Positions 783 through 59,224 of a DNA stretch of 64,000 nucleotides are shown one piece after another. Under the pieces are notes generated by a model, which saw nothing but the letters and a program-made list of their open reading frames with translations, did no database searches and was not told the origin of the DNA. The DNA is taken from IMG/VR virus record IMGVR_UViG_3300042965_000128, positions 7,234 through 71,233 of that record; one strand, given 5' to 3'. A program made the translations under genes and the position numbers. Within the stretch, counting starts at the first letter, position 1, and each line of letters begins with the position of its first letter. The DNA comes from a virus.

Positions 783-1817
783 GTGATGACGGAAGTAGGG
801 AGAAAAAATTATGGCCCGACCGTTACGGTCGGACAGGCGAAGAGGATTTTAGGCTCCCTGCTAAGCAAGGAGCCCAGGGAGGTTCCCTCTGTGTTTTTAT
901 GGGGACCTCCGGGTATAGGAAAGTCGTCTCTTGTAAAACAGGTTGCTGAAGAAAAGGGAATCGGGATAATAGACCTTAGGCTTTCACTTCTTGACGCCAT
1001 TGATTTGAGGGGGATTCCCTCTGTTAAAGATGACAAATGCTTCTGGACAAGACCTCCGTTCCTTCCAGCTGAGGGAAAAGGAATTTTATTTCTTGATGAA
1101 CTTAACACAGCTTCCCCATCGGTTCAGAACAGCGCCTTACAGCTTGTGCTGGACAGAAGGGTAGGGGAGCATAAGCTTGGTGATGGATGGTATATTGTAG
1201 CAGCGGGAAATAGGAGAGAGGATAGCTCCCTCGTCTTTCAGCTCGCAGATCCACTTCTTTCGAGGTTTGTTCATTTAGAGGTTAATGTCAATGTGGATGA
1301 GTGGCTGAGTTGGGCGATTAGGAATGAGATTGACGAAAGGGTTGTTGGTTTTATTAAATTCCGTCCTGAGCTATTGCTCAGGGTGGAGTCAGGGAAGAGA
1401 CAGAGCATTAACTTCCCATGCCCGCGGGCATGGGAGTTTTGTTCAAAGTTAATATCAAGCGGAGTTGACCCGGTTATGGCGGCGGAGAGTTCGGTTGGTT
1501 TAGGTGCTGCGGCAGAGTTTGCGGGTTATATTGAGGTTTATTCAAAGCTTCCTCCAGTTGAAAAGGTTTTGAGTGGGGAGGTGGAATTTCCGCAGGAGTT
1601 GGAGCCGAGCGCAATATGTGCGCTTGGCGCATCCTTGGTGTCGCACGCAAAGAGTCAAAAGGATGTTGATAGGATACTGGAGATTGTGTTATCCTTTAAG
1701 AGAAGAGAGTTCGGAGTGTATATTTTGAAGCTTCTATATGCCAAAGACAAGGAGAAGGCCAAGAAGAGTTCGAAGTGGGATACTGTCGCTAAGCGCTATT
1801 TGGAGGTGATAATATGA
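783..1817 (+). CDS. MoxR/dynein-related AAA+ ATPase
   Basis: Walker A GPPGIGKS, Walker B ILFLDE, sensor AAGN, LLSRF arginine finger, PRAW; adjacent VWA partner. Confidence 0.9.
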   Translation: MMTEVGRKNYGPTVTVGQAKRILGSLLSKEPREVPSVFLWGPPGIGKSSLVKQVAEEKGIGIIDLRLSLLDAIDLRGIPSVKDDKCFWTRPPFLPAEGKGILFLDELNTASPSVQNSALQLVLDRRVGEHKLGDGWYIVAAGNRREDSSLVFQLADPLLSRFVHLEVNVNVDEWLSWAIRNEIDERVVGFIKFRPELLLRVESGKRQSINFPCPRAWEFCSKLISSGVDPVMAAESSVGLGAAAEFAGYIEVYSKLPPVEKVLSGEVEFPQELEPSAICALGASLVSHAKSQKDVDRILEIVLSFKRREFGVYILKLLYAKDKEKAKKSSKWDTVAKRYLEVII

Positions 1818-3226
1818 AAAAGGTTGGGAGAATATGTATTGAAAAAGCGATATCAAATCTCCTTCTGGATTCACCCTTTTTCGGAAGCTTGATTTTGGAA
1901 GCGGAGCTGAAGGAGACTGAGGAAGTTCCTACGGCGGCGGTTGACGGAAGGGGAAAAATCTTTGTCAATCCGAGATATGTAGAGAGGCTTCAGGTTTCGG
2001 AAGTTCAGGGTTTGCTGGCGCATGAGGCTTTACATCTTGCTCTTTTGCACTTCGTGAGAGAGAGTGGTAGAGATAAGCGGAGGTGGAATATAGCAGCCGA
2101 TTTGGCGGTCAATTCGATATTGGCGGAGAAGCGTTTCGCATTGCCGCCGGGAGGGATTTTCCCGCGGGATTTCGGATTTGAGGATGGTTTAAGCGCTGAA
2201 GAATATTATCGTCTGCTTGAGAAGTTACCACCGCCTCCACAGCCTCCTCCGGGTGGTGAGGGTGAAGAAGAAGGTGAGGGTGGTAATGGTGGTGGAGGTA
2301 GGAGGAGGAGTGAGGGGTTTGATGAGCACAGGATTCCTCCACGAGCGGGTTCTGGTAATGGAGGTGGAAAGGAGGATGGTTCGGAAGGTGGGCAATCGGG
2401 GAAGGATCCTCATCAGAAGGATGATAGTGGTGAGGGTAGAGATGTAGGAGAGAGACATGGTGAGGGTGGTAAGAAGGATGGGGGTAAGGGAGGAAATGAG
2501 CATGGTGATGGGGAGGATGGGAAAAAGGATAAGGATAGAGATGGAGTTCAGGCAGATAATGAGTATGAGGAAAGGGGACTTACGGAAGAAGATATCAGAA
2601 AAATTGAGGCTAAGTGGAAAAGGGCGGTTGCAAGGGCGATGTCGATTAGGAAGAGAGGGGAGCTTCCAGGTTGGTTTGAGCAGATGATTTGTGAGTTATT
2701 TGAACCAAAGCTGAACTGGAGGTTCATACTCAGAGAATTTATTGCGGACAATTGTGTGATATCTGGTGTGGATTGGACGAGAAGGGATAGGAGGTTCCAG
2801 GATGTGTATTTACCTTCACGGAGAGAGAAGGTAGTTAAGTTCGCAATAGCGGTTGACACTTCCGGTTCGATTTCGGATAAGGAGCTCGCGGCGTTTTTCT
2901 CGGAAGTGAATGCGATTTTAGGTTCAAATGGAGCATACGATATAATTTTGATACAGTGTGATGCGGATATTACGAGTGTGAAGGAAATTGCTTATCCAGA
3001 TACAATTGATTGGAGTGAGATCAGGATTGTTGGTAGAGGGGGAACGGATTTCAGGCCGGTGTTCAGGTATCTTGAGGACCATAATGACAATAGGCCGCTG
3101 GTGTATTTTACTGACCTTGAGGGTGTTTTTCCTGAGGCGACACAGCGTAAGGTTTTGTGGGTTGTGGTTGGTAGAAAGAAGGAGGTTCCCTTTGGTGAGG
3201 TGGTGGAACTGGAGGTGGAGTCATGA
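1814..3226 (+). CDS. HEXXH metallopeptidase-like domain + VWA domain protein (DUF2201-like)
   Basis: LAHEALH, WNIAAD, Gly/acidic low-complexity linker, MIDAS VDTSGS, GRGGTDF, YFTD; ATGA overlap with the ATPase. Confidence 0.9.
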   Translation: MKKVGRICIEKAISNLLLDSPFFGSLILEAELKETEEVPTAAVDGRGKIFVNPRYVERLQVSEVQGLLAHEALHLALLHFVRESGRDKRRWNIAADLAVNSILAEKRFALPPGGIFPRDFGFEDGLSAEEYYRLLEKLPPPPQPPPGGEGEEEGEGGNGGGGRRRSEGFDEHRIPPRAGSGNGGGKEDGSEGGQSGKDPHQKDDSGEGRDVGERHGEGGKKDGGKGGNEHGDGEDGKKDKDRDGVQADNEYEERGLTEEDIRKIEAKWKRAVARAMSIRKRGELPGWFEQMICELFEPKLNWRFILREFIADNCVISGVDWTRRDRRFQDVYLPSRREKVVKFAIAVDTSGSISDKELAAFFSEVNAILGSNGAYDIILIQCDADITSVKEIAYPDTIDWSEIRIVGRGGTDFRPVFRYLEDHNDNRPLVYFTDLEGVFPEATQRKVLWVVVGRKKEVPFGEVVELEVES

Positions 3227-6574: not shown

Positions 6575-7110
6575 AGGTATATGATGGGTACCTGATTCGT
6601 GATTTTCTTGAGGAGCTGACTGGTGATATTGAGCGGTATGTGAGTATAAGGCTCAGGGAACTTGATGATATTGTGAGGGGTAGGAAGAGGGGTTCGGTTG
6701 TGTTCACTGATGATCGATTGGGTGTGTTTGGTATGGAGAGGGTGTATGTGGAGTATGAGTATGCTGGTGGTTGTGGCGTGAGGTGGAAGGGGATGGCTTA
6801 TCCTTCTAACGTTGTGTGGGCGGTGACTGAAAGGCTTATTCAGGAGTTTGTGAAGGAGGAGGATAGGAAGGGGATAAATAATGTTATAGGCTTTTTGCTT
6901 TGGTGTGTTAATAATGGTCTGGAGCTGGGTAGAGTTTTAGGTATATATAGGGAGCGGATAGATTTATTTGTGTCGTTGGTGGCGGAGGCGCTTAGAGTGG
7001 AAGAAGAGGTAGTTGAGGGGTTGAGGCGTGAGTATGAGGAAACGGGTATGTGGAAGGAGGTTGCCTCAGCGAAGGTGGAAGAGGTGCTTGATAGGTCTGT
7101 GCGGGGATGA
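6571..7110 (+). CDS. hypothetical early protein
   Basis: ATGA overlap; C-terminus KVEEVLDR. Confidence 0.65.
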   Translation: MKVYDGYLIRDFLEELTGDIERYVSIRLRELDDIVRGRKRGSVVFTDDRLGVFGMERVYVEYEYAGGCGVRWKGMAYPSNVVWAVTERLIQEFVKEEDRKGINNVIGFLLWCVNNGLELGRVLGIYRERIDLFVSLVAEALRVEEEVVEGLRREYEETGMWKEVASAKVEEVLDRSVRG

Positions 7111-7113
7111 ATT

Positions 7114-7166
7114 CGTGCCGGATGAGTAGAGTTTTTCCTCCTTGTTTTGCTCGCTCATCCGGCACG
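7114..7166 (+). other. intergenic hairpin with anti-Shine-Dalgarno loop
   Basis: perfect 13-bp inverted repeat CGTGCCGGATGAG (7114-7126) / CTCATCCGGCACG (7154-7166); loop contains TTTTTCCTCCTTGTTTT. Confidence 0.8.
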
Positions 7167-7188
7167 TGAATATGATTAGGGTGCCGAT

Positions 7189-7608
7189 ATGAGTGTATTG
7201 CATGCGGGTAGGATTGTTAATCGTGTGAGGAGGTTGCTCGTTGAGGAAGTGCTTGAGTGTGATGGGAGCAATGTTTTTGCGAATGTGCTGGGGAGGGTGG
7301 TGCGACATGGGTTCAGGCTTAAAGATGGTTTATCGGTTGATGATTTGCGGAGTAGATATCCAGCGCTGCATGCGGCTGTATGTGATGACTTGTGTTCGTT
7401 GCCCGAGGGTGTGCAGTTGGTAGCGGTGGAGCGGGTGGAGGGATTTTTTGGTGTGTTGTGGTATTTTGTTTTTCTCGGTGAGGGTGTGCGTTATCATCTG
7501 CCGATGGTTTTGCCTTCTGATATGAAGCAATTTAGTGCGCTTGTGCTGGAATTTTTGCGATTTCGTGCGGATAACAGGAGGTTGAGGGGTAGTTGTGGAC
7601 AGCGGTGA
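7189..7608 (+). CDS. early paralog family B, hypothetical
   Basis: RLLVEEVLE...VDDLRSRYPAL...LPSDMKQF..L..EFLRF. Confidence 0.7.
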   Translation: MSVLHAGRIVNRVRRLLVEEVLECDGSNVFANVLGRVVRHGFRLKDGLSVDDLRSRYPALHAAVCDDLCSLPEGVQLVAVERVEGFFGVLWYFVFLGEGVRYHLPMVLPSDMKQFSALVLEFLRFRADNRRLRGSCGQR

Positions 7609-7634
7609 TGCTGGAGTGTCTGGGTTGGTAAGTT

Positions 7635-8177
7635 ATGTTGCATCTTGAGCAGGAGATAGATCGTATTATTTTTGAGGGATATCTGGAGGGGGACTATGTT
7701 GGGTTGGTCACGAGGTCGATTGTGGAGATGAGAAGGTATTTGAAGTTTGTTTATAAGATTATTCATGGTGAGGTTGTTGTGGAGATTGGTAAGGATACAT
7801 CTATGTATGAGGCGGTGATGGATGTAGCTGGTTGTCTGGAGGGGACATCTTTTGATGGTGTTTCTAAGAAAGCGTTGAATTATCTGAAAAGGGTTCGACG
7901 TGATCTGGATAAGGATCATGAAAAGATTTTGTATAGGTTGAAGCGGAGGTGGGTGTTAAGATGGCACTTTTTCTTTTTGCACGATAATGGTTATGTGAGT
8001 CTATCTTTCTGGTTATTGCCCGCGAGTAGTTTGATTAAGAGTTATTATTTGGGCAGTCAGCGGAAGCGGCATTTTGTGATCAGAAGCGGATTGATATCGT
8101 TGAGGCATAATGAGAAGGCTGTGCTGGATTCATTTATGCGGGTTGTGCGTGATTTGAATGAGCGTGGTTGGCAATGA
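7635..8177 (+). CDS. hypothetical early protein
   Basis: 180-aa ORF; N-terminal RIIFEGYLEG tag. Confidence 0.65.
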   Translation: MLHLEQEIDRIIFEGYLEGDYVGLVTRSIVEMRRYLKFVYKIIHGEVVVEIGKDTSMYEAVMDVAGCLEGTSFDGVSKKALNYLKRVRRDLDKDHEKILYRLKRRWVLRWHFFFLHDNGYVSLSFWLLPASSLIKSYYLGSQRKRHFVIRSGLISLRHNEKAVLDSFMRVVRDLNERGWQ

Positions 8178-8338
8178 ATACTGGGTGGACTGGGATTGAG
8201 GGTTTCAATGCTATATTTGTGGGGATGCCGGGACGGTATTTTGTAAGGGAGTGGGGTGAAGGCAGGTTGAATGTGAGCTGGTTGGAACGGATAGCTGGAT
8301 ATTATAGTGGTTGTAATGCTTGTTTCCTCGAAGTTTAA
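8174..8338 (+). CDS. possible 54-aa ORF (not in the ORF track)
   Basis: ATGA overlap with the upstream stop; MNTGWTG...CFLEV. Confidence 0.35.
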   Translation: MNTGWTGIEGFNAIFVGMPGRYFVREWGEGRLNVSWLERIAGYYSGCNACFLEV

Positions 8339-8513
8339 TTAGGGTTTGAGGTGGAGTTGATTTCTGAGGTGCAGTGAGGTGACGACTCGTGTGGTTTGTT
8401 GTTGCTTCGGTTGCTTAATTTTAGAAAGTGGATAATGCTTGATTAAATTTTTTGAATTGGTTAAATTTTCGAAAGGAAAGGTGATAAGTTGAAGCAAACT
8501 TGATGGGATTGGT

Positions 8514-9890
8514 ATGGGTTATCGTTTTGAAGAGGATAAGGTTCAGCCTGTAGTAATTGTTGAGCCGAGGTCGGATGGTTTTTCTGCGTTTGAGCATGAT
8601 GATTATGTGATAAGCACCTATGCTTATTATACCTCGTTACCGGGAGGGCAACGGCTGGAAATACCGTTTGTGGTGCCTGTGAGTTATTTTTATCCTGAGG
8701 TAGATCTTATGGTTGTTGGTCCGGGGAGTGGTGTGGATGAGTTGGTTCAGCCCTTTGTTGTTGATGAGGATAATGTGTATTCATTTGTGGTGCCATTTAG
8801 GGGTTTATCGGTTTTCACGCTGATTGATGATTTTGAGGGGTATGCGGATACTGGTGCGTTGCGTGCGGTGTGGGTTCCGAGTGATGTGGCGAATACGCCT
8901 AATACGCTTGTTGTTGGTGATTCGTTTGGTAGCAAGTTTATGCGTATACAGACGACGAAGAATAATTCGGTTGGTGATTCTGTGCGCAGGACTTTTAGTT
9001 CTGTGCAGGACTGGTCGCAGTATACTGGGGTTCGGTTTCGTGTATTGTGTAATACGAATGCTTTTATGCAGTTTCGTATAATTGATGAGGCAGGTTCGAT
9101 AGTGTATGTAAGTATACCGCAGTATGGGAGTGTAACGAGTGCATATTTTCCTTTTACATCTTTTACAAAGGTTGGTGCTAATTTTGTTGATTTGAGTCGG
9201 GTTCAGGCGATTGAGTTTTATTGTGCGAATGATTCGCAGGTGACTAGTCTTCAGGTTGATGATATATATGTGGTGCGTATGCCGAACTTGATTTTGAAGT
9301 ATCAGCTGGGTGAGGTGCAGTTATCGCCCTCGTTTAATTTTGTGCCGCTTTTGTTTGATGATGGTTCAGCGTATAAGGAGCTGGTTGTTACTGTACTGGA
9401 TGTGACGGGCACGGTGTTAGATATATCGTTTGGTGTTTGGGATAGGAGTAAGGTATTGGATAGGAGTAAGGTGTATGGTGTGCGTTTCTTTGATTTTAGT
9501 GAGCAGGGTTTTGTGGGTGTTAATAATATGTCTTCGTTGCGTGCGCGGGTTTTGTCAGGTGGGGTGTGGGTTGGACTGGATAAGAATGTTGCATTTATGT
9601 TGACATCGGAGTTGCGTAGCAGGTTGAAGCGGTTGTTGTATTATGAGGTAACCCCGAATAATTTTCCTATTGGTTCGGGCACTGTGTCTGGTTTTTTGGT
9701 GAAGGATGGGCGTGTGGTTCGTTCATTATTCAATAATCAGGTCGGTTTAAGTTTTTATCCGAAGGAGGTGTGTTCTGATTTGATAAGGGATGAGCGTTTT
9801 GTTGTTGAGCTATGTCCTTTTCAGCCGCTGGATAGGTGGGTTCTGTTGAATGTGCGTTTGAATTTCAGGGTTGAACGGAGGATAGAATGA
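8514..9890 (+). CDS. putative virion protein with a CBM11/CIA30-like carbohydrate-binding domain
   Basis: IDDFEGY...DWSQYTGVRFRV...PFTSF...VDLSRVQAIEFY...LQVDDI pattern. Confidence 0.6.
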   Translation: MGYRFEEDKVQPVVIVEPRSDGFSAFEHDDYVISTYAYYTSLPGGQRLEIPFVVPVSYFYPEVDLMVVGPGSGVDELVQPFVVDEDNVYSFVVPFRGLSVFTLIDDFEGYADTGALRAVWVPSDVANTPNTLVVGDSFGSKFMRIQTTKNNSVGDSVRRTFSSVQDWSQYTGVRFRVLCNTNAFMQFRIIDEAGSIVYVSIPQYGSVTSAYFPFTSFTKVGANFVDLSRVQAIEFYCANDSQVTSLQVDDIYVVRMPNLILKYQLGEVQLSPSFNFVPLLFDDGSAYKELVVTVLDVTGTVLDISFGVWDRSKVLDRSKVYGVRFFDFSEQGFVGVNNMSSLRARVLSGGVWVGLDKNVAFMLTSELRSRLKRLLYYEVTPNNFPIGSGTVSGFLVKDGRVVRSLFNNQVGLSFYPKEVCSDLIRDERFVVELCPFQPLDRWVLLNVRLNFRVERRIE

Positions 9891-10555
9891 TAGAGTTGAC
9901 GTGGGGTGAATTTAGGAATTTGATTCTGGCACATGACTTGTTGCGTTGTGTCAATTATGTAGATCTTGGTAGGTATTATTTGTTGTGGGTTTCGGTTGAG
10001 AATGTTTTATTCAGGTGTCAGGTATATAAGAATTCATTTGAGGCTTCTGAGTTTGAGGCGTTGCGTGATAGGATCCCGGTTCAGGAGCGTTTTGATGAGG
10101 TTGGGCATAGGGTTATAGCGCGGGGTTTGGGTGTTTTGCCGGGTAATACGGTTTGGGCGGGTGCGATGAATGGTCTGGATTTCAGGTTTGGTATTATTGC
10201 GGGTGTAGAGAACTTTTTTGATATGCAGCTGGATAGGGATAGGTTTTTGTGGGGTGGTCGCTACGTGATAGTGGATGAAGCCGCGATAAATGTGAATGAT
10301 TATATTGAGTTGAGTATAATTGATAAGGATAATGTGCTTGGGTTGTTTGATGTGTATGGTGTGCCACCGGGTGGTTTTCTTGAGCTTAAAAAGTTTGTAA
10401 GGAAGTGGTGGGTGTATAAGACACCGGTATTTGAATTTGTGAGTGAGGATGCTACATATTTGCCTCAGGGTCTTTATATCAGGTGTGGGTATCGGAGTTT
10501 TGGAACGGTTGATAATACACTGTTATTTACACTTTACTTTTTTGAAGATGTTTGA
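9887..10555 (+). CDS. hypothetical phage protein
   Basis: ATGA coupling, 222 aa. Confidence 0.7.
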   Translation: MIELTWGEFRNLILAHDLLRCVNYVDLGRYYLLWVSVENVLFRCQVYKNSFEASEFEALRDRIPVQERFDEVGHRVIARGLGVLPGNTVWAGAMNGLDFRFGIIAGVENFFDMQLDRDRFLWGGRYVIVDEAAINVNDYIELSIIDKDNVLGLFDVYGVPPGGFLELKKFVRKWWVYKTPVFEFVSEDATYLPQGLYIRCGYRSFGTVDNTLLFTLYFFEDV

Positions 10556-10581
10556 TAAGGTTGAGAGTGTGAGGTTTAAAG

Positions 10582-10764
10582 ATGGCTGATAAGGTGGTGG
10601 TAGCAGTGGTTAATGCGAGTGGTGAGGTGGTGAAGGGTGGTGTGCAGGATGGTAAGATCGTGGGTGTTTTAGAGGATGCTAATGTTGAGAAGCGGAAGGT
10701 GGAGAGGAAAATAGATACGCTGATCAGTGAGGTGGTCAAACAAAGGACTGCTGGTAAGGGTTAG
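10582..10764 (+). CDS. small hypothetical protein
   Basis: GAGGT RBS, 60 aa. Confidence 0.55.
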   Translation: MADKVVVAVVNASGEVVKGGVQDGKIVGVLEDANVEKRKVERKIDTLISEVVKQRTAGKG

Positions 10765-10881
10765 AGTTGATGGGTTGGAGAGATTTAAAATGTGGGGAAT
10801 GTGGTTTAATTTAGGCGGAGATTTAATTATAGGCTCTATTTGATTTAAAATTGATTAGAGAAGATTGAAGGGGTGATAGTG

Positions 10882-11121
10882 ATGGCTGATAGAGGTCTTG
10901 AGGGCAAGATCAGAAGAGTTGATATTAAGTTGGATGGTGCGATATCTTATGCGAGGCAATCGCTTGGTGAACTTGATGATGCGATAGATGTTCTAAAGGT
11001 TCTTGTTTCTGCTGGTTATGTGAGTGGTGGTCGGGTGCGGAGGCTTGAGAGGCTGGCGCATGATTTGCATTCGGTCATTGAGAAGCTGGAGGAGTTTTCC
11101 GATGAGTTTATGGAATTTTGA
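10882..11121 (+). CDS. helical-hairpin paralog family member
   Basis: amphipathic heptads with central turn LVSAGYVSGG; start moved from 10873 to ATG 10882. Confidence 0.65.
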   Translation: MADRGLEGKIRRVDIKLDGAISYARQSLGELDDAIDVLKVLVSAGYVSGGRVRRLERLAHDLHSVIEKLEEFSDEFMEF

Positions 11122-11141
11122 ATTTTGGTTGGGTAGTAGAG

Positions 11142-11528
11142 ATGATGAGGGTTAATAGGGTTATAAGCCGGTTGTATGGTATTTTGCGTGGCGATTTGAA
11201 GCGTTATGCCTCTACGGTTTATATTCTTAATACGCCTGTTTTGACGGATTGGGGTGAGTATGTTTTTCGTCCGATAAGCGTTGATGAGGCGCTTGAGTTG
11301 TTGGAGGGTGGTTTTGTTTCGGCGGTTGGGCATGAGGGGACAGCACAGATTCTGTCACAACTGCTCGGTGTGAAGGTTCCTGTGAGTCGGATTCAGATAA
11401 GGATGAATGTTGGTGATAAGGCGTTGGTTTTTAGGGTTTTAACGAGGTTACCTGAGGGGAAGGTTTTGACAGAGGAGGAGTTAAGGAAGCTTCCGTGGAC
11501 GATTGGGTTGTTGGAGCGTGTGCGGTGA
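11142..11528 (+). CDS. acrIII-1: AcrIII-1-type viral ring nuclease (DUF1874 / STIV B116-like) with an N-terminal extension
   Basis: YILN start of core, FVSAVGHEGTAQILSQLLG with the catalytic His, GDKALVF, RLPEGKVL. Confidence 0.85.
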   Translation: MMRVNRVISRLYGILRGDLKRYASTVYILNTPVLTDWGEYVFRPISVDEALELLEGGFVSAVGHEGTAQILSQLLGVKVPVSRIQIRMNVGDKALVFRVLTRLPEGKVLTEEELRKLPWTIGLLERVR

Positions 11529-11761
11529 TGTTTGGTTGGAATATTAGGGAGAGGTTTATTGGTTTTTTGAAGTCGTTGGTAGAGGTGGTCAGGCGTGATG
11601 ACGTAGTTAGTTTGGCTTTTGGTTGTCTCTTTGTTTTGCTGGGATTCGTGGGAGTTTTGTTGAATGCAGAAGGGTTGATTTCGAGATTGCTATCTCTGGT
11701 TTATTGTATTGTGATGATTGTGGGAGTGTGGCTCGTTTTTAACAGTTTAGGGAAGGGATGA
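11528..11761 (+). CDS. small two-TM membrane protein
   Basis: TGATG overlap; two hydrophobic stretches. Confidence 0.55.
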   Translation: MFGWNIRERFIGFLKSLVEVVRRDDVVSLAFGCLFVLLGFVGVLLNAEGLISRLLSLVYCIVMIVGVWLVFNSLGKG

Positions 11762-12159
11762 GGAGATATTTTTTTGTGCTTTATAAGAATCCGTCAAGCA
11801 TTGATGATAGAGAGAATTATGTGGTTGTTTCGCCTGGAGAGTTATTGCTGGCGGTTGGATGGGTGCGGGCGATTATTTCCACAATTGCGATTTTGAGAAT
11901 GGACTTTGAAGCAATCACTTTAAAGCCCTTCATTATTGCTGAGAAGGTTCTTTCAACGAGAATGTTTGTTCATGAATTCACACATTTGAGGCAACAAGAA
12001 GATGATGGACTGATAAAATTCTGTATCAAGTATCTGTGGGAGTGGTTTAAAAATTTCTTTTTCAAAAAAGAGACAAGGTTTAATTTTTTTGAGTCTTATT
12101 GGAATATATCTTATGAGGTTGAGGCGAGGGAGGCAGCAGAGAATTTTCAGAGGGCATGA
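11758..12159 (+). CDS. small zincin-like HEXXH protein (DUF4157-like)
   Basis: FVHEFTHLRQQ...YWNISYEVEAR. Confidence 0.65.
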   Translation: MRRYFFVLYKNPSSIDDRENYVVVSPGELLLAVGWVRAIISTIAILRMDFEAITLKPFIIAEKVLSTRMFVHEFTHLRQQEDDGLIKFCIKYLWEWFKNFFFKKETRFNFFESYWNISYEVEAREAAENFQRA

Positions 12160-12737
12160 GAGTGGGATATTTGGTTGAGGGTGCGATAGGTTTTTCAAGT
12201 TCGCCTTCGTGGATTAGCAGGGTGATAAGGTGGTTTACGAGGTCGAGGTGGTCGCATTGTTTTGTTGTTTGGAAGGTGACTGGACCTGACGATGATGATA
12301 TTCTTTTGGTAGAGGCGGGTGAATTTCAGGTTCAGATAGTTACATTAGGAAAGTATATGAGAGGAAATTACGAATTTGAGATTTTAGATGTATCTTCGTT
12401 GATAAATTCAGAAAAGAAAAAAGAAGCGGATAAAAAGTTAGTGTCAAAAGTTGAAACGCTTTATGGCTGGCTACAATTGATAGGATTTGGAATTGTTATT
12501 TTGTTAAGAAAGTGGTTTGGCTGGAAGAGTAAGAAAAATATCTGGGGGCGGGGCAAAATCTGTTCAGAAGTTGTTGCGGAGTATTTGATTGATTGCGGAA
12601 TTGATTACAAAAGTTTATGCGGTGACAAGGATATAAATTTAATCTCACCAGAGGATATATATAAGTTCTTGGAATCAAGGAATTGTGATGTTATAATGTT
12701 TAAAAGATTTAACAAAAAAAGTAATAGGAGGTGCTGA
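12156..12737 (+). CDS. circularly permuted NlpC/P60 (YiiX/YebB-like) hydrolase
   Basis: IRWFTRSRWSHC (His first), YGW, KICSEVVA (Cys last). Confidence 0.75.
   Translation: MRVGYLVEGAIGFSSSPSWISRVIRWFTRSRWSHCFVVWKVTGPDDDDILLVEAGEFQVQIVTLGKYMRGNYEFEILDVSSLINSEKKKEADKKLVSKVETLYGWLQLIGFGIVILLRKWFGWKSKKNIWGRGKICSEVVAEYLIDCGIDYKSLCGDKDINLISPEDIYKFLESRNCDVIMFKRFNKKSNRRC
12669..12697 (+). promoter_or_regulatory. sigma70-like promoter inside the 3' end of the upstream gene
   Basis: TTGGAA, 17-nt spacer, TG-T-TATAAT, upstream of 12739. Confidence 0.55.
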
Positions 12738-12738
12738 T

Positions 12739-12969
12739 ATGGCGAGAGAAGAAAGGATGAAAGAGTTGGTGGTAGGGAGGTTTAGGAGTGCCCTGAATAT
12801 ACTCTGGGATGCTCTTGAGTTGTTTGAAACTGCCGCGGAGGGTTTAGAGGATTTAGTGGATGAAGATCCTATAGGTTACAGGGCAAGGTATGAGAGGATA
12901 AGGGAGGATCTGAGAAGGATTTGGGACGCGGGAGAGAGGATAGAGAGGGAAATTAGGCGTTTAAGGTAG
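12739..12969 (+). CDS. helical-hairpin paralog family member (divergent)
   Basis: RBS AGGAGGTG; all-helical E/R-rich 76 aa. Confidence 0.65.
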   Translation: MAREERMKELVVGRFRSALNILWDALELFETAAEGLEDLVDEDPIGYRARYERIREDLRRIWDAGERIEREIRRLR

Positions 12970-13268
12970 TGGGTGTGGTGATGGATAGGACTCTGGCGCG
13001 GTTGCTTCATTTTTTATCTGAGAGGTCGTTTGAGCGGCTTCGTGATAGGGTATATGCATTGAAAGAGTTTTTAATGGATAAGATGCTAGGTGAGCTCGCA
13101 GGTTATGTTAAGGAGTTTAAGAGCGTTTTATCAAAAGATGAATATCAGACTTTGATTAAGTTTTTTATGGATTTTGAGGATGTGGTTAAGGAGGATCTGG
13201 AAGAACTTTTGAATGATGTTGAAGCACTTTTGAAGAGGCTGGATAAGATAACTGGTTTCAAGCGTTGA
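12969..13268 (+). CDS. helical-hairpin paralog family member
   Basis: central SVLSKDEYQTL turn. Confidence 0.65.
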   Translation: MGVVMDRTLARLLHFLSERSFERLRDRVYALKEFLMDKMLGELAGYVKEFKSVLSKDEYQTLIKFFMDFEDVVKEDLEELLNDVEALLKRLDKITGFKR

Positions 13269-13315
13269 TCGGTTGTTTGAATTAATTCGGTTTGTTGTGG
13301 TGATTTAAATTAAAA

Positions 13316-13516
13316 TTGATTGAGACCGAGGGGATTAAGTATATTGGTTCCAAGGAAAGATTACTGCCTTATATTTTGGATTTTGTTCGGCGGTTGCGTC
13401 CTCGTGTGGTGCTTGATGCGGTGGGCGAATGGGTGGGTAAGGGGAATGCTGGTGATAAGGAATTTTTGTTTTTTGTTGAGAATGTAGTCGCTGATGGAAG
13501 GGATCAGACGAATTGA
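13316..13516 (+). pseudogene. remnant of a D12-class adenine methyltransferase
   Basis: IKYIGSKERLLPYI...VVLDA (motif X and start of motif I) then stops after 66 aa; no DPPY. Confidence 0.6.
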
Positions 13517-14472
13517 TACTGATGAGGAGCTGCGTTCGAGGTTGCTATCCTTGTGTCGTTTGAGTTACGGTGATATTTGGGTGGATGCGGTTAGGGGTCA
13601 CAGGGTGGGTGTTCTGGATGCTACTAAATTGGAGGATGTGCAACGGATTATGGGTGGGGAAAAAGGCGCGGTTGGTATTGAATGACCCGCCCTATAATTT
13701 GGTGGTTGGTAATGCTAAAAGTGCGTATCTTTTCAAGGTTGATATTGGGGCTTATTTAGAATTTTCACGGGGGTGGATCCAAAATGCTGTTTATGTCATG
13801 GATGCTGATTCGCATTTGTATATATGGGTGGGTGCAGATTACAGGGATGGTTTTCAGCCCCTTCCTGACTTAATGATTTTATTGCGTGAGTTTAAGGAGT
13901 TGAAGCCGCGGAATTTTATCACGATGCGTAATCAGCGTGGTTATGGGACGCGGCGGAATTGGATGTGGGTAAGACAGGAACTTCTTTATTATGTTAAGGG
14001 TAATCCGGAGTTCTATGTGGATGCGGAATATACTGAAATTCCGAAGATAGTCAGGGGTTATTATAAGAAAGTAGGAGGTGAGGTTAAGGAGAATTTAGTG
14101 CGGAGCAGGTCTAAATTTATAAGAGCGGGGAATGTCTGGGTTGATATACAGCAGGTTTTTTACAGGATGGAGGAGAATGTTCCGGGGTGTTATGCGCAGA
14201 AGCCGTTGAAGGCGATTGAACGTATAATTCGTTCTGCCACGAAGGAAGGTGAGTTGGTGGTAGATTTTTTTGCACACTCTGGTACGACGTTGATCGCTGG
14301 AGAAAGACTGAAGAGGGTGGTATATACTTTTGATATTGATCCTGTATTTGCTGAAATAACGATAAGGAGATTGGAGCGTTATAGAAGCACAGGGAAAACG
14401 GGCTGGCAGTGGGAGAGTCCCTTTCCTGAGTTAGGTAGTGCTTTTTTAGTTGGATTGGGTGTTTGGGCTTGA
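13494..14472 (+). pseudogene. N6/N4 DNA methyltransferase (beta class) split by a +1 frameshift
   Basis: ORF 13494 ...VLDATKLEDVQRIMGGEK joins ...ARLVLNDPPYN of ORF 13570 if one A is removed from A5 at 13660-13664; QKP and VDFFAHSGTT downstream. Confidence 0.75.
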
Positions 14473-14513
14473 TTTTTGGAAAATGCTGGTTTAGGATTTG
14501 ATTTGTAGATTGA

Positions 14514-15185
14514 TTGCAGATGCGGGCGATGAAGGTGGCATTGGATATAGGTCATTTGTATAAGAGGAGCAATCCGGGTGATAAGGGAGCATTGTATGAA
14601 GGAATTTATGAGGCTGATTTTGTATTTAATTATGTGAGGAAAGCGTATCAATTACTGGAGGGTGAAAACGGTATTGAAGTTTATATGTCTGATCCCTTGA
14701 AGGGTATTCTGGTTGGTGATTATTGGGAAAGAAGGAGGTGGGTGAATGAGCGGTTTGGTGAGACTGATTTGTATCTTCAATGTCACTTGAATAGTGGGAA
14801 TGGTAATTATGCTTTAGTGATGTGTGTATTGGGTTTTGATTATGATGAGAAGGTTAATAGGGTTAGGCCAGTTGTTCCAGATGAGCTGGTTGAGATTGAA
14901 AGAATGTATGGTCAGGTTTTAGCGATGAATACGCAGAAGTTTTTAGGGCTTCAGGTTAGGGATTTTGATGAAGCGAAGGATTTTGTCTGGAGTTTGAAGA
15001 GGGGAGAAAGAGGGTATGATATAGTTAAGCAGTTCAAGTGTCCCGCATTTGTCTATGAGCCCTGTTTTATAGATAACACATATCATTTTGAGAATTTGAA
15101 AAGTGGGGTGTGGGTAGAGGCTATAGCGAAGGCTATTTGGAGGTCATGTATTGAAATCAGGGATAGGATTAGTTATAATGGGTGA
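14514..15185 (+). CDS. N-acetylmuramoyl-L-alanine amidase (Amidase_3) endolysin
   Basis: VALDIGH, IYEAD, CHLNS, YEPCFID zinc-amidase motifs. Confidence 0.8.
   Translation: MQMRAMKVALDIGHLYKRSNPGDKGALYEGIYEADFVFNYVRKAYQLLEGENGIEVYMSDPLKGILVGDYWERRRWVNERFGETDLYLQCHLNSGNGNYALVMCVLGFDYDEKVNRVRPVVPDELVEIERMYGQVLAMNTQKFLGLQVRDFDEAKDFVWSLKRGERGYDIVKQFKCPAFVYEPCFIDNTYHFENLKSGVWVEAIAKAIWRSCIEIRDRISYNG
15151..15179 (+). promoter_or_regulatory. sigma70-like promoter inside the amidase 3' end
   Basis: TTGAAA, 17-nt spacer, TATAAT. Confidence 0.65.
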
Positions 15186-15187
15186 AG

Positions 15188-15213
15188 GATTAAGGAATTT
15201 AAATAAGGAGGTG
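15188..15213 (+). repeat. duplicated 26-bp leader/RBS, copy 1
   Basis: GATTAAGGAATTTAAATAAGGAGGTG; 24/26 identical to 15540-15565. Confidence 0.75.
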
Positions 15214-15218
15214 CTGTT

Positions 15219-15527
15219 ATGCGTAGATATGGGATGACTTTGGAGGAGTTTGTGGAGGAGATGATAGCGATGGGGAGGGAGTTGGTTAATATGGGTTATA
15301 AGAGGGTGGATGAGTTGAGGCAGTTTTATGGTAAGGTAGATGAATTGAGCAGGTTGCTTGATGAGGCGCATATTGGTGGTGAGTTGTCGACGCGTGAATA
15401 TAGAAATTTAAATGAAAGGCTCACGATGATAATGGATATGGTGAAGGATGCGTCCAGTATAGGTAAGCGTGCTGTGGATGCGTTGAATAAATTTTTAATG
15501 GATGTAGGCGGTTTGTTAAAAAAGTAG
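15219..15527 (+). CDS. helical-hairpin paralog family member
   Basis: starts MRRYG; turn EAHIGGELSTREYRNL. Confidence 0.8.
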   Translation: MRRYGMTLEEFVEEMIAMGRELVNMGYKRVDELRQFYGKVDELSRLLDEAHIGGELSTREYRNLNERLTMIMDMVKDASSIGKRAVDALNKFLMDVGGLLKK

Positions 15528-15539
15528 GTTTAGTGAGAA

Positions 15540-15565
15540 GATTAAAGAATTTTAATAAGGAGGTG
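15540..15565 (+). repeat. duplicated 26-bp leader/RBS, copy 2
   Basis: GATTAAAGAATTTTAATAAGGAGGTG. Confidence 0.75.
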
Positions 15566-15569
15566 TAGC

Positions 15570-15872
15570 ATGAACGGTGATTTTTTAAGGGACATCGTAA
15601 GGAAGTTCAGGGCAGTAGAAGGGCGGTTTGAAAGACATCTACTCGGCATAGTTGACCAGTTTCTGGAGGAGTTAGAGAGAATGCGTGGTGCAGTGGCTGA
15701 TGCAGTGCGGAGGGGTGAAATCTCGCGGGATATACGGGAAGATATTTTAGCGACGGTTGATGCGATTGTTGCTAAGGTAGAAGGTACGGATTCAATTGTC
15801 GGTAAGGTTGGGGAAATAAAGAGGTTGATAGAGGAGTTGAAAGATTATATTGAAGAACGTTATGGCGATTAG
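15570..15872 (+). CDS. helical-hairpin paralog family member
   Basis: turn DAVRRGEISRDIREDI. Confidence 0.8.
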   Translation: MNGDFLRDIVRKFRAVEGRFERHLLGIVDQFLEELERMRGAVADAVRRGEISRDIREDILATVDAIVAKVEGTDSIVGKVGEIKRLIEELKDYIEERYGD

Positions 15873-15955
15873 GGCGGTAACATCGTTTTGTGGTCGTCTG
15901 GTCTCTGTGGAGGCAGATGCGGTTTGGTAGTTGGAATTCGATTTAGTATTTTATT

Positions 15956-16222
15956 TTGGAGTGTATGATGGGGCGTTTTGATAAGTTGCGTTTTTTGCTT
16001 CAGCAGGCGGGTTTGCTGGATGTGAATAAGTGTTTGCTGGATGTTGATTTATCAAAGTCGTTGAAGTTGCTCGAGTTGAGTGGTAGTTTGCACTCTTTGT
16101 CTGATGATGATTTGCGGGCTTTATATGATTTGGTTGAAGAGGAGATTAGGGATAGGAGGGCGGGTTTGTATCGGCTTTTGGGTTTGTTGAAGGATGAAAT
16201 GGCGCGTAGGGGTCTGACATGA
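15956..16222 (+). CDS. small hypothetical helical protein
   Basis: ATGA overlap with the next gene. Confidence 0.55.
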   Translation: MECMMGRFDKLRFLLQQAGLLDVNKCLLDVDLSKSLKLLELSGSLHSLSDDDLRALYDLVEEEIRDRRAGLYRLLGLLKDEMARRGLT

Positions 16223-17772
16223 TTGAACAGCTTTTGAAGATATTTGAGTTTGGTGACCGCTGGTATGTGGATTCGATGAATGGTGATGATGCTAATGATG
16301 GTAGGAGTTGGGCTACTGCGAAGCGGACTATACAGAGTGCGATTGATGTGGCGCAGAGTGGTGATACGATTTTGATAAGGGGTAGTTTTGATGAGGATAT
16401 AACGATTTCGTATAAGCAGTTGCGTATCGTGGGTGTGGGTAGTTCGAGCATTAACGGGACATCGGATTTGTCAAGACCGATCATAACGGTTGATGGTGGT
16501 ACTGTGGTTTGTGTTGGTATTAGTTTGGGTGTGGTGGTTAATGCTGATTGTACTTGTATTTTGCTGGATGATATTAATCCGGTTGAGAGGGGTGATAAGA
16601 TAGTAGAGGTTTTTGGTGCGGTTGATTCTTTGGGGGTTGGCAATTGGATTGGTGATCCCTGGAATGCTGAGGAGTTAACCTCAACGAAGTTAATTGAGAA
16701 GTATTCTGCGTCTGTGGCGGTTAAGCCTTCGCCGGGAGATACGACGCTGGTAGTAAATGGTAATATAGCGGTTGAGCCGTGGTTATCGGTGAGGAAGTTT
16801 ATGCAGCAGGGTCATGCTTTTTTCCCGATTTATATTACGCGGAGCTATGAGGGAATAACTTATGATGAGGGTAATGATGTTTCAATTATTTCGGGTATTG
16901 ATCCACCTTTTACGGCTGATACTTTGCCGGGAGATTGGCCGAAGAATAATATTTATTTGTGTGCGATAAGGGTGCATCCTGATAGTTTTGTGGGTTTTCA
17001 TGCGAGGGGTGAGCAGATAGTTCCTGACAGGCGGAATTTGAAGCATTTGATATCTTCGCAGGGTTTAACGCTTTTGAGTGCGATTTTTGTGAGTTGTATG
17101 ATTCGTGCGTATATAAGTCCTTATATGCAGATTCCTGTTCCTGTGTCGAATTTGATTTTTGATAGTTGTTGGTTTTGGGGTTTGCAGGATATAGGGCGTT
17201 ATCTTTTTAATTTTCTTTGTATACCATTTGGTTCATTTGCGGTGCGTGATAGTGTTTTTTTGGTAACGGAGGGTTCGGGTATTGCGAAGATAACGGGCTT
17301 GTCGGAGGATTTTTTGCGTATGATTGGTGCGCCTTTTACGAAGGATTTTAGGGATTTGCTGGGTGTGGGAGGGTTTTTCCATAATATAATTGCTAACATA
17401 TCGTTTGGTAACTTTGATGCGCCTGTGATAAGGGATTGGGTGAGTTCGAAGGTTCCCATATCGAAGCTTGTGATTGGGCGGGAGGTGTTGTCGGTTGATA
17501 TGAATACTGGTGAGATTGTTATAGGACCGCTTGAGCTTGCATTGCCGTTTGCTGAGAATTTGTGGGTAAATGCGTATTATGCGGGCTTGAATTACAGGAA
17601 TGTTGAGGTTGTGCGTGATGTGGATAGGTGTCCGGCTGGTGATGTTTTGCGTTCGTATAAGGATAAGGCGGCGCTTGGTAATGTTGCTGCGATTGAGGAG
17701 TCGTTGGTGTATGATGTGAGTGCTGTGTTGCAGGGTCTGGTTGCAAAAAAGAGGCTGGAGATTATAAAATGA
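16219..17772 (+). CDS. putative right-handed beta-helix (pectin-lyase-like) virion or surface protein
   Basis: N-terminal WYVD...GDDANDGRSWATAKRTIQSAIDVAQSGDTILIRG cap motif. Confidence 0.65.
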   Translation: MIEQLLKIFEFGDRWYVDSMNGDDANDGRSWATAKRTIQSAIDVAQSGDTILIRGSFDEDITISYKQLRIVGVGSSSINGTSDLSRPIITVDGGTVVCVGISLGVVVNADCTCILLDDINPVERGDKIVEVFGAVDSLGVGNWIGDPWNAEELTSTKLIEKYSASVAVKPSPGDTTLVVNGNIAVEPWLSVRKFMQQGHAFFPIYITRSYEGITYDEGNDVSIISGIDPPFTADTLPGDWPKNNIYLCAIRVHPDSFVGFHARGEQIVPDRRNLKHLISSQGLTLLSAIFVSCMIRAYISPYMQIPVPVSNLIFDSCWFWGLQDIGRYLFNFLCIPFGSFAVRDSVFLVTEGSGIAKITGLSEDFLRMIGAPFTKDFRDLLGVGGFFHNIIANISFGNFDAPVIRDWVSSKVPISKLVIGREVLSVDMNTGEIVIGPLELALPFAENLWVNAYYAGLNYRNVEVVRDVDRCPAGDVLRSYKDKAALGNVAAIEESLVYDVSAVLQGLVAKKRLEIIK

Positions 17773-22954: not shown

Positions 22955-24191
22955 GCGTTTAGTGTTTGATGTTTATGTTCTTGAGTATATAAGGCGATTT
23001 GATAAAAAGGCGGACTATTTATTTAGGGAGAAGTTATGGGAGCTTGTGGATGTGGTTTTGCGTATGGTTGTGGATGCGGTTTTAGAGGAGGCGCGGTATT
23101 TGTTGGATGCGCCTGGTGTGCGTGGTAAGGCGGCGCTAAAATCTGATTTGAACAGGCTTTTTGAGTTAGAGGAGGTTGATAGGTTAGATGAATTTTTTGC
23201 GCTGGCTAAGGATGTTGCGAGGCGTGCTCGTGAGGCGGGAATGCTTTATTTTTCGCATGGCTGGGAGGGGGTGGTTGACAAGGCGTTAGAGCTTTTGCGG
23301 ACGAGTGATTCGTCTACGGCTATGATTTTGGTGGATCAGATTAAGGATATAGCGCATCTGACGGGTATGGTTTTGCCTGAATTGTCGAGGGTAGTGAAGG
23401 AGATGGAGGGTAAGCGGATAGGTGAGATTGTGAGGGATTGCTCGGATGAGGTCAAACGCATTTATGATAAATTGCGATTGGTTTTTCCGGAGGTTCGTGT
23501 AGCGCAGTTGAGGATTGAGAAACCTTCTGATTTTGGTAGGGAGGAGGAGCGGGTGATACCTGGTGTTAAGCCTATGAGGTTGGTGGATATTAAGAAGTGT
23601 ATAATGGAGGTTACGAGTTGTTTAGATAGTTTGCTGCCGGCTTCGAGATTTGAATTAAGCAGGAGTGAGGATGAGGGTGGTAATCCTACGGAGTTTGCGG
23701 GTATATTTACGCATTTTTGGTATTGTTGTAATGCGGTTTTGACTTTGTTTGAGGAAATAAGTTTCAAGCCTGGGATGTTGAGTGCGGTTGATGCAGGTGC
23801 GTTTCGTGATGCGGTTGTGCGTTACTGGGAACATTTTTTGGAGGAGCGAATAAGGAATTTTGATTCGAAGATTAGGGTTTTGTGGGCGCGGTGGCAGGTA
23901 GATGGTAGGAGGATTACGGATTTTGCGAGTTTTTTGAGGAATTATCCGTATAGTCATTTGTGGGATTGGGTTAAGGCGGCTGCTGAGTCGCGGTGTTGTG
24001 ATTGTGTGAAGGAGATGTTGCGTGTGCCTGTGAGGCGTGATATGGATTTGGATCGTTATAGGGACAGGTTAAGGAGGGTTTTTGCGGTTTTAACGGTGCT
24101 TAAGAAGGGTCCGCGTGTGGTAGGTGAGGTTTTGCAGCGGTTGGCGTTTGTTGAGTTCGCTTTAGGTTCAGGTTATGTTGAGGCGGACTAA
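22932..24191 (+). CDS. two-domain hypothetical protein
   Basis: helical N-domain, linker PEVRVAQ, Cys-rich C-domain paralogous to the 22355 ORF. Confidence 0.7.
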   Translation: MEGDLNLRRLVFDVYVLEYIRRFDKKADYLFREKLWELVDVVLRMVVDAVLEEARYLLDAPGVRGKAALKSDLNRLFELEEVDRLDEFFALAKDVARRAREAGMLYFSHGWEGVVDKALELLRTSDSSTAMILVDQIKDIAHLTGMVLPELSRVVKEMEGKRIGEIVRDCSDEVKRIYDKLRLVFPEVRVAQLRIEKPSDFGREEERVIPGVKPMRLVDIKKCIMEVTSCLDSLLPASRFELSRSEDEGGNPTEFAGIFTHFWYCCNAVLTLFEEISFKPGMLSAVDAGAFRDAVVRYWEHFLEERIRNFDSKIRVLWARWQVDGRRITDFASFLRNYPYSHLWDWVKAAAESRCCDCVKEMLRVPVRRDMDLDRYRDRLRRVFAVLTVLKKGPRVVGEVLQRLAFVEFALGSGYVEAD

Positions 24192-58921: not shown

Positions 58922-59224
58922 ATGAAGATTGGGATAGAAAGGGTATTTTTTGATTCGGTGAATGTTAAAACGGTGGTTTTGGATTTTATGAATAAGGTTG
59001 TGGTTGTGGATTTTGTGTTAGGTTCTGGTGATGTGGAGGTTTTGCCACAGCGGTTGACGCTTGATTTACAGGATTTACTTTTGCGGCGTGTGGAAGGTAA
59101 GGAGGTGTTAGGTGATTTTTTAGTGGATTGGCTTAAAGCCTCTATATTGCGTGTGCTGTTAGGTTCGGGTAGCAGGGAAGATGCTTCAAAGGTTACCGAG
59201 GGATTACCGGGAGAGGCAAAATGA
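58922..59224 (+). CDS. small hypothetical protein, weakly similar to the 58584 ORF
   Basis: V.FD...I/V..V.....VVD...G pattern shared. Confidence 0.55.
   Translation: MKIGIERVFFDSVNVKTVVLDFMNKVVVVDFVLGSGDVEVLPQRLTLDLQDLLLRRVEGKEVLGDFLVDWLKASILRVLLGSGSREDASKVTEGLPGEAK

Follow-up and report, generated by a model that had tools for sequence, protein, structure and literature searches.

A bacteriophage member of the AcrIII-1/DUF1874 ring-nuclease family without the usual start codon and with a probable N-terminal helix that is short and loosely conserved

Introduction

The closest described counterparts of the gene analysed here are the AcrIII-1 ring nucleases of viruses with crenarchaeal hosts, represented among solved structures by SIRV1 gp29 (PDB 2x4i; cA4 complex 6scf), AFV3-109 (2j6b) and STIV B116 (2j85). 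For gp29, a preprint account describes His47 as the general acid, with an activity loss of more than 2500-fold in the H47A variant, and credits R85 with locking the closed dimer; it names N8, S11, N13, S49, T50, R66 and Q81 as cA4 contacts, to which I69 and L92 add contacts through their main chain (bioRxiv 10.1101/778746).

Not every viral member of the family behaves as an anti-CRISPR. SIRV2 gp37, a native AcrIII-1 homologue, is described in a second preprint as the product of a middle/late gene that has no anti-CRISPR action during infection and that moonlights through interaction with a host protein, and in the same account an early anti-defence promoter lies over just 2 of 24 crenarchaeal viral ring-nuclease genes (10.1101/2023.01.10.523387). 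The result for gp37 means that 'anti-CRISPR' is no safe functional label for every viral member, and the timing of gp37 expression together with the scarcity of early promoters makes the timing of these enzymes a real question in the field, to which the present locus gives no answer.

Related proteins are also found outside archaeal viruses. The cellular ring nuclease Crn2, as in the Marinitoga Csx1-Crn2 fusion (PDB 8y6z/8y7f/8y7g), has the same domain as the protein described here (E 3.2e-06 to 1.7e-04) and is host-encoded, CRISPR-associated or fused to Csx1, whereas the present gene stands alone in a phage. Among the matches listed by tblastn, the closest named phage relatives are DUF1874/YddF-type proteins of Fusobacterium phages, Vibrio phage Rostov 7, Aquificae Conch Spring virus and Hydrogenobaculum phage 1, with 38-57% identity and E values down to 1e-19; all 40 of the 40 matches listed begin at query residue 22 or later, and the N-terminal leader discussed below is present in none of them.

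Other phages carry anti-defence proteins into the cell within the virion. T4 IPI is a packaged anti-defence protein with a capsid-targeting sequence, and P1 DarA/Hdf has likewise been described as a packaged anti-defence protein. What these proteins have in common with the present gene is only the idea of an anti-defence protein that acts before phage gene expression; no link in sequence or context was found.

The original prediction for the locus, made from the sequence alone, saw a DUF1874/AcrIII-1 ring nuclease with a basic leader and raised delivery of the enzyme in the virion. The account favoured here, with moderate confidence, is that of a cA4 ring nuclease recognised by homology, in which the usual ATG has been lost, translation starts at a pair of ATG codons further upstream and the resulting extension is young, weakly constrained and tolerated.

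The phage fragment and the surroundings of the gene

The window, that is, the whole stretch of 64,000 nucleotides that was analysed, is taken from an IMG/VR virus record, linear and 71,233 nt long with a CheckV completeness of 29%, of which it covers positions 7234-71233. Its Amidase_3, SLT and Baseplate_J domains, and the AGGAGGTG-type ribosome sites found upstream of most of its genes, show the 71-kb contig to be a fragment from an uncultivated tailed bacteriophage and not from an archaeal virus. The source setting is hot-spring or sediment metagenomes, and the phage is very divergent; among deposited phages there is no close relative of the contig, its baseplate protein matches Halorubrum viruses only, at 27-32% identity, and a search of the genome-contig collection returned 3 distant loci. 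A Pfam search of 80 ORFs recognised an N-acetylmuramoyl-L-alanine amidase (Amidase_3), an SLT transglycosylase, a Baseplate_J protein, two DNA methyltransferases, an SbcCD-like pair and a UDG, left the majority of the ORFs without a family and recognised no cas genes in the window; tRNA genes were not found either.

The credible genes of the window are all on the + strand, whose GC skew is between +0.41 and +0.62 across all sixteen 4-kb intervals. A scan of positions 7000-16500 gave 24 promoter-like sites, compared with 17.1 +/- 4.8 in shuffled sequence, and 6 terminator-like sites, compared with 5.2 +/- 2.8. Since all genes share one strand and neither scan does better than the shuffles, an early operon, outside which the original prediction had placed the gene, is not definable from the sequence.

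The ring-nuclease gene belongs to a tight co-directional block, in which it is preceded, in order, by genes for proteins of 458, 222, 60 and 79 aa without assigned function and followed by genes for a 77-aa hydrophobic protein, a protease-like and a papain-like protein and then by a methyltransferase and an endolysin gene, the latter about 3 kb downstream. The following features are needed here:

11142..11528, + strand, including the stop codon: putative coding sequence of a 128-aa DUF1874/AcrIII-1-family protein (ORF call, PF08960, AF2 model)
11217..11498, + strand: PF08960 domain proper, residues 26-119 (Pfam profile; pLDDT mostly above 90)
11331..11333, + strand: CAT codon of His64, which corresponds to the catalytic His47 of SIRV1 gp29 (alignments to gp29)
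11528..11761, + strand: downstream gene for the 77-aa hydrophobic small protein, whose own ATG overlaps the ring-nuclease TGA (TGATG)

The TGATG overlap shows that the genes of the block are tightly packed and probably coupled. Family searches with the 77-aa protein gave none, and NCBIfam returned zero matches for the ring-nuclease protein and 8 of its neighbours. The 458-aa protein, encoded about 1.2 kb upstream of the ring nuclease, is hypervariable and has weak leads to carbohydrate-binding modules; between the window and L006, a related locus of the window's own type, it is only 56% identical, compared with 82-97% for the other 19 proteins that were compared. With this protein on one side and the endolysin on the other, the neighbourhood is late-looking; genes for head, portal, protease or packaging functions were not recognised next to the ring-nuclease gene. 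The ring nuclease itself is 96.1% identical in the window and L006 (range of the 19 other pairs, 56-96.8%), and its place as the second most conserved protein of the neighbourhood points to selection on the enzyme.

Family assignment and catalytic residues

The ORF opens on the + strand with ATG ATG at 11142/11145 and closes with the TGA at 11526-11528. A minus-strand ORF at 11016-11333 (105 aa) was set aside, as the + strand frame holds the Pfam domain. The 128-aa product matches PF08960.15 (STIV_B116-like, formerly DUF1874) with an E value of 7.7e-28 and 97 bits against a gathering score of 26, the match covering positions 1-99 of the 101 in the profile, and a profile search at the level of the contig agrees. 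In PHROGs it matches phrog_5063, which has no assigned function, at E 1.4e-23. The best sequence match among solved structures is AFV3-109 (2j6b; E 7.4e-19), with further matches to STIV B116 (2j85), SIRV1 gp29 (2x4i and its cA4 complex 6scf) and the Marinitoga Csx1-Crn2 fusion. An AF2 model built with 110 aligned relatives has a mean pLDDT of 86.7, with most of the core above 90, and in a Foldseek comparison with the PDB it retrieves 2j6b with E 2.1e-10, an rmsd of 2.0 and a TM score of 0.83 by target, and the chains of 6scf with TM scores of 0.82-0.85.

The product contains FVSAVGHEGTA at residues 58-68 and RLPEGKVL at residues 102-109, and with these both motifs quoted in the original prediction, SAVGH and RLPEG.VL, were found. 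On the strength of the Pfam, PDB-sequence and AF2/Foldseek matches and the two motifs, the assignment of the gene as a genuine bacteriophage member of the AcrIII-1/DUF1874 (Crn2) ring-nuclease family, as judged from sequence and model, is solid, and the DUF1874/AcrIII-1 core that had been claimed for it, with its catalytic His and its fold, is borne out.

Residue conservation was read from alignments made in the present analysis. Alignment with gp29 pairs H47 with H64, N8 with N30, T50 with T67, R66 with R83, R85 with R102 and L92 with L109. Four contact positions differ, S11, N13, S49 and Q81 of gp29 being replaced by V33, T35, G66 and R98, and these four residues match the consensus of the closest subfamily in the 110-sequence alignment. 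Across the 110 aligned family members, S60, G63, H64, R83 and D92 are invariant, and N30, R102, L103, P104, E105 and G106 nearly so. By homology, the protein would have what the family requires for cA4 cleavage, with activity and dimer formation both predicted on that basis. The product would dimerise and bind cA4 at the interface, where the ligand would be cleaved with His64 as general acid, and the removal of cA4 would switch off the cA4-activated effectors of type III CRISPR or of another cA4-dependent defence. That the host has a cA4-based defence is a reasonable inference from the presence of a ring nuclease.

The protein is like the solved AcrIII-1 members in its Pfam match, its modelled fold, its catalytic His, its Asn, Thr, Leu and two Arg contact residues and in being encoded by a virus. 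It differs from them, at 24-43% identity, in that its phage has a bacterial host and the solved members come from crenarchaeal ones, and in its probable 25-residue basic helix and missing canonical ATG, the solved members being without a leader. A strict definition of an anti-CRISPR calls for viral origin and for protection of the virus from type III CRISPR during infection; of these two, it is the viral origin that the IMG/VR record and the phage domains give for this gene.

The missing canonical start and the candidate start codons

Of 29 related loci drawn from viral and metagenome collections, 25 have an ATG 1-6 codons ahead of the conserved Tyr/Phe in the first strand. Four loci depart from this pattern: L006, the 96% identical relative of the window's own type, in which the canonical ATG is likewise absent; L009, where the DUF1874 domain forms the C-terminus of a 547-aa ORF; L010, with an ATG 9 codons ahead; and L011, which has no in-frame start codon. 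In the window, the site of the relatives' ATG reads ACG GTT, and the features that bear on the start are these:

11122..11141, + strand: 20-nt spacer from the stop of the upstream 79-aa gene (TGA 11119-11121) to the ATG pair, with the weak SD-like GGTTGGGTAG (sequence, duplex energy)
11142..11216, + strand: putative N-terminal extension, codons 1-25 (MMRVNRVISRLYGILRGDLKRYAST), reading from the first ATG
11172..11198, + strand: three in-frame TTG codons (11172, 11184 and 11196), candidate internal starts (reading-frame scan; weak SD pairing)
11214..11219, + strand: ACG GTT (Thr25-Val26) at the site of the relatives' ATG (comparison of 29 related loci)

Judged from these sequences, the start-codon anomaly, i.e., the loss of the usual family ATG directly before the first beta-strand in the lineage of the window, is real. 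With the family's usual start codon lost, the protein probably begins with an additional helix, short and loosely conserved.

The start-like codons in frame upstream of the core are TTG 11118, ATG 11142 and 11145, and TTG 11172, 11184 and 11196. The statement that the only in-frame ATGs upstream of the core are codons 1 and 2 was confirmed, and the in-frame TTG at 11196 that had been singled out as an alternative is present; it is accompanied, however, by further in-frame TTGs at 11118, 11172 and 11184. The leader had been given as 23 aa. Its basic character holds, with 6 K/R and 1 D, but its length is 25 residues to the Pfam domain and 26 before the Tyr of YILN.

TTG 11118 was rejected as a start. 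L006 carries a GG insertion between the upstream stop and the ATGs, which turns the sequence there into GGGGGT, and has no indel after the ATGs; contigs of run X7, which are of the L006 type, carry the identical GG insertion behind 11130, and contigs of runs X1, X5 and X6 have no listed leader difference. An indel of 2 nt is not a multiple of three, which marks the stretch 11122..11141 as non-coding, and its position upstream of the ATGs means that coding starts no earlier than these; a frame opened at TTG 11118, where SD pairing is weak as well (-3.3 kcal/mol), would be shifted by the indel in L006 and X7.

SD energies were calculated with a generic anti-SD motif that may not match the host's 16S rRNA, and on this measure the ATG pair has the best pairing of the six in-frame candidates in the window (-5.0 kcal/mol), compared with -3.8, -3.3 and -2.9 kcal/mol for TTG 11172, 11184 and 11196, the last being the weakest ribosome-binding signal of all candidates. 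The internal TTGs pair more weakly than 90-96% of 71 putative starts. The SD pairing of the ATG pair in the window is itself weak: just 18% of putative starts pair no better, and its value is reached by 53% of 1902 internal start-like codons. In L006 the ATG pair reaches -9.8 kcal/mol, beating the median of -8.4 for the 71 putative starts, and the internal TTGs remain at -3.9, -4.3 and -2.9 kcal/mol. The 20-nt gap to the upstream gene is typical, as consecutive selected genes are separated by 28 nt or less in 37 of 70 cases, the 70 including the gap that holds the ring-nuclease gene.

Codon usage divides the leader. Codons 15-25 are coding-like, with a score that is reached by 0.2% of 1246 non-coding windows, which indicates that the protein extends well upstream of the canonical start. 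Codons 2-14 score -0.39, a value reached by 18% of non-coding windows and undercut or equalled by 5% of in-frame windows, and such a low score is also predicted by a start at TTG 11184 or 11196. The score of the leader as a whole (8.0, 25th percentile of in-frame segments) was discarded as support for the full leader, as it is carried by codons 15-25 only. From the roughly 7% of stop triplets expected from base composition, the chance of an open stretch of 18-24 codons is estimated at about 0.2-0.3.

On this sequence evidence, translation would be initiated at the ATG pair 11142/11145, adding about 25 residues, and we regard this as the probable start; initiation at an internal TTG between 11172 and 11196 appears rather improbable, and what is left of the probability goes to other possibilities, namely that the gene is silent or that it starts at a non-canonical codon near 11214. 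The leader is probably translated. Ribosomes ending the upstream gene would reach the ATG pair 20 nt further on, and the outcome would be a basic, amphipathic, helix-prone extension of 24-25 residues ahead of an otherwise standard enzyme.

Composition, distribution and age of the extension

The 6 K/R and the single D of the leader stand ahead of a core that is near neutral (12 K/R and 13 D/E). AF2 places residues 3-22 in a single helix with a pLDDT of about 55 and without confident packing against the core. The hydrophobic moment of the leader is 0.63, which is reached by 3% of shuffles (p 0.03) and marks the helix as amphipathic; in the relatives P0001 and P0125 it is 0.61 and 0.51.

The leader is confined to four protein relatives (P0001, P0123, P0124 and P0125), all 95-100% identical to the window protein. 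Of 171 word-index hits, P0001 (96% identity) and P0005 (55%) are the only ones that cover it, and the 90% cluster of P0001 consists of four 128-aa sequences, all four with the leader. An exhaustive search of 1.84 billion representatives returned 1911 proteins at E <= 1e-3; residues 1-6 are aligned by none of the best 150 of these 1911, and the few among the best 150 that align from residue 7-18 carry unrelated sequence there. P0125 departs from the window protein at 5 of 25 residues in the leader and at 2 of 103 in the core (Fisher p 0.003), the leader changing about ten times faster per residue; the leader differences are R3V, R6K, S9G, G13S and I14V, all upstream of TTG 11184. The DNA of P0005 and P0125 was not found in the viral and genome contig collections.

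P0005 is a 128-aa protein, 55% identical to the window's, with an extension of 24 residues. Homology of this extension with the leader was considered, on the basis of an ungapped score of 14 (shuffle p 0.004 among 7 comparisons), and rejected, as it is contradicted by the tree and by the helix moment of P0005, which is only 0.20. In a tree of 60 core sequences, from which seven rows without the motif had been dropped beforehand, the window clade stands apart from the other extension-bearing groups, and P0005 joins proteins with CxC...CxC extensions, across a starred 97/90 branch from the window clade. The likeness is treated here as chance or convergence.

The original prediction also held that homologues begin close to YILN. 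This applies to the majority, with at most 5 residues before the Tyr in 90 of 115 word-index hits and 78 of 138 new representatives of the exhaustive search, but not to all: 6-14 residues precede it in 10 of 115 and 17 of 138, 15-40 residues in 12 of 115 and 15 of 138, and more than 40 in 3 of 115 and 28 of 138. In 8 of 42 extensions of 15-60 residues a Met lies beside the canonical site, and these may be over-called. The extensions are unrelated to one another, and include Pro-rich ones, ones with Cys pairs (CxC...CxC) and a weak RHH match (E 0.004, below the cut-off). That the extensions of other lineages are quite different indicates that extensions arise easily in the DUF1874 family. The leader of the present protein, as far as comparison of sequences can tell, would be a lineage-specific, recent and loosely constrained addition.

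Alternative explanations

A start at an internal TTG (11184, 11196 or 11172) would yield a near-canonical ring nuclease of 110-118 aa with a tail of 7-15 residues, and 11142-11183 would be untranslated and open by chance. This reading, which we hold to be doubtful, accords with the position of all leader differences from P0125 at residues 3-14, ahead of TTG 11184, with the change from non-coding-like codons 2-14 to clearly coding-like codons 15-25, with the extensions of 6-14 residues known from the family (10/115 and 17/138) and with the use of TTG as a start codon by other genes of the phage. Those apparent TTG starts, however, all follow strong GGAGG sites (18539, 19740 and -481), whereas the internal TTGs have the weakest SD pairing at this locus (-2.9 to -3.8, and -2.9 to -4.3 in L006, compared with -5.0 and -9.8 for the ATGs), and their use would stretch the spacer to 50-74 nt. 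In the supposedly untranslated stretch, moreover, 12 of the 13 codons (2-14) are common in the phage and the lone rare one, AGC, is GGT in L006, four of the five replacements in P0125 stay within the class of the residue (R>K, I>V, S>G, G>S) and the frame is open in 5 of 5 distinct sequences of the clade.

If the leader is translated, it may still be either a by-product or a signal. As a newly evolved signal for the capsid or virion, or for another location such as the membrane or entry site, it would let a pre-made ring nuclease enter with the DNA and destroy cA4 before phage expression, the role raised in the original prediction. Such a signal would fit the predicted amphipathic helix of 20 residues with its net charge of +5, the packaged proteins of P1 and T4 and the late-looking surroundings with the hypervariable 458-aa protein and the endolysin. 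It would also, if true, solve the timing problem of natively late-expressed AcrIII-1 homologues, a problem that is real for the family, SIRV2 gp37 being described as natively middle/late and as failing as an anti-CRISPR (10.1101/2023.01.10.523387). We nevertheless consider a dedicated signal very improbable. A targeting signal conserved among relatives was not found, since only relatives with 95% identity or more have the leader, which is less well conserved than the core and changes ten times faster per residue; its placement in the AF2 model is of low confidence, none of the genes alongside was recognised as a head, portal, protease or packaging gene, and extensions elsewhere in the family (CxC...CxC, Pro-rich, weak RHH) are unrelated to it. 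The evidence points to a neutral consequence of start-codon loss rather than to a functional leader, and the extension would be a tolerated by-product of start-codon migration. A third reading leaves the leader aside and concerns the enzyme, which could be a bona fide DUF1874 enzyme with another role, be it late cA4 clean-up, action against another cA4 system or moonlighting through a host protein as for SIRV2 gp37. The rarity of early promoters over crenarchaeal ring-nuclease genes (2/24) and the place of the gene in a co-directional block with protease-like, papain-like, methyltransferase and endolysin genes are in line with this, but the enzyme has kept its catalytic His and the main cA4-contact residues, and the identity of 96.1% between the window and L006 is the second highest in the neighbourhood, so that such a role is judged unlikely. 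The preferred account remains that of a predicted cA4 ring nuclease whose start has migrated to the ATG pair.

Significance for the ring-nuclease family

The gene adds to the AcrIII-1/Crn2 family a bacteriophage member from a very divergent, uncultivated phage of a thermal habitat. For annotation, the lesson is that its start is uncertain by 10-18 codons. The leader, if it is functional, could bear on the timing or placement of ring nucleases during infection. More generally, the comparison across the family shows that the small, single-domain DUF1874 proteins repeatedly gain unrelated N-terminal extensions, of which the one described here would be a recent case.

Fusion and N-Terminal Extensions in Other DUF1874 Proteins

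Outside the phage studied here, the DUF1874 domain occurs with N-terminal additions of several kinds. One metagenome contig (L009) contains the following frame:
L009 4681-6324: 547-codon open frame with a C-terminal DUF1874 domain, fused ring nuclease
This frame encodes a fused ring nuclease, the DUF1874 domain spanning residues 416-511 of the 519 residues scanned and the large N-terminal part giving weak TPR matches. The junction sequence recurs identically in a second locus (L011), but there without an in-frame start. The N-terminal extensions found in other DUF1874 lineages are mutually different and unrelated, as seen among the proteins compared:
P0024 and P0130: DUF1874 proteins with an unrelated extension
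P0025, P0026, P0028, P0032, P0033 and P0039: six-protein group with an unrelated extension
P0115: DUF1874 protein with an unrelated extension
One extension type comprises about 50 residues with two cysteine pairs (CxC...CxC), another is a Pro/His/Thr-rich stretch (PHPAIHTPPRPT...) conserved in six DUF1874 proteins, and a third may be a ribbon-helix-helix segment, its RHH_1 match (E 0.004) falling short of the cut-off.

Gene Content Around the Ring Nuclease

Directly 3' of the ring-nuclease gene and the 77-aa gene that follows it lie two genes with PHROG matches, each start overlapping the preceding stop by 4 nt:
Window 11758-12737 (+): 133-aa and 193-aa proteins
The 133-aa protein carries an HExxH-like motif (HEFTH) and matches phrog_15610, annotated "protease" (E 1.1e-07), and the 193-aa protein matches phrog_1128 (E 2.3e-15). 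The related locus L006, whose ring nuclease is 96% identical to that of the window, was used for a comparison of the encoded proteins, in which one protein stood out:
Window 8514-9890 (+), L006 3373-4734: 458-aa protein
Its identity between the two loci is only 56%, against 82-97% for the other 19 block proteins compared, and its first ~30 residues are conserved. Leads to carbohydrate-binding modules from a protein atlas are weak (TM scores <=0.38); the protein may evolve fast and serve to bind a receptor or glycans.

Pfam searches assigned further genes of the window:
783-3226 (+): MoxR-type AAA+ ATPase (AAA_5), then DUF2201 putative metallopeptidase with VWA-like protein
13585-14472 (+): DNA methyltransferase, N6_N4_Mtase
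24175-25008 (+): LigD 3'-phosphoesterase domain, DNA-repair-type
26497-27339 (+): DNA methyltransferase, D12-class N6-adenine
59221-62390 (+): SbcD/SbcC-like pair (Metallophos; SMC_N/SbcC Walker B), DNA-repair-type
62415-63719 (+): 434-aa protein with C-terminal UDG-superfamily domain, DNA-repair-type
The AAA_5 and DUF2201/VWA-like genes (E 4.6e-42 and 4.7e-24 for the latter) are a conserved two-gene pair, here carried by a phage. The N6_N4_Mtase gene may be split or truncated in L006, since the matching frame there has just 123 aa vs 295 aa in the window.

Strand Asymmetry and Genome Size

Strand asymmetry is extreme: when positions 1-64000 are divided into 4-kb windows, each of the sixteen has a GC skew between +0.41 and +0.62. 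All credible genes of this stretch lie on the + strand, third codon positions hold only 5% C and 14% A, and the many long frames of the minus strand are spurious. The whole 71-kb record (G000) is estimated by CheckV to be 29% complete and a protein identical to the window's ring nuclease (P0123) sits on a 130,488-nt contig, so the genome of this phage is probably well above 130 kb.
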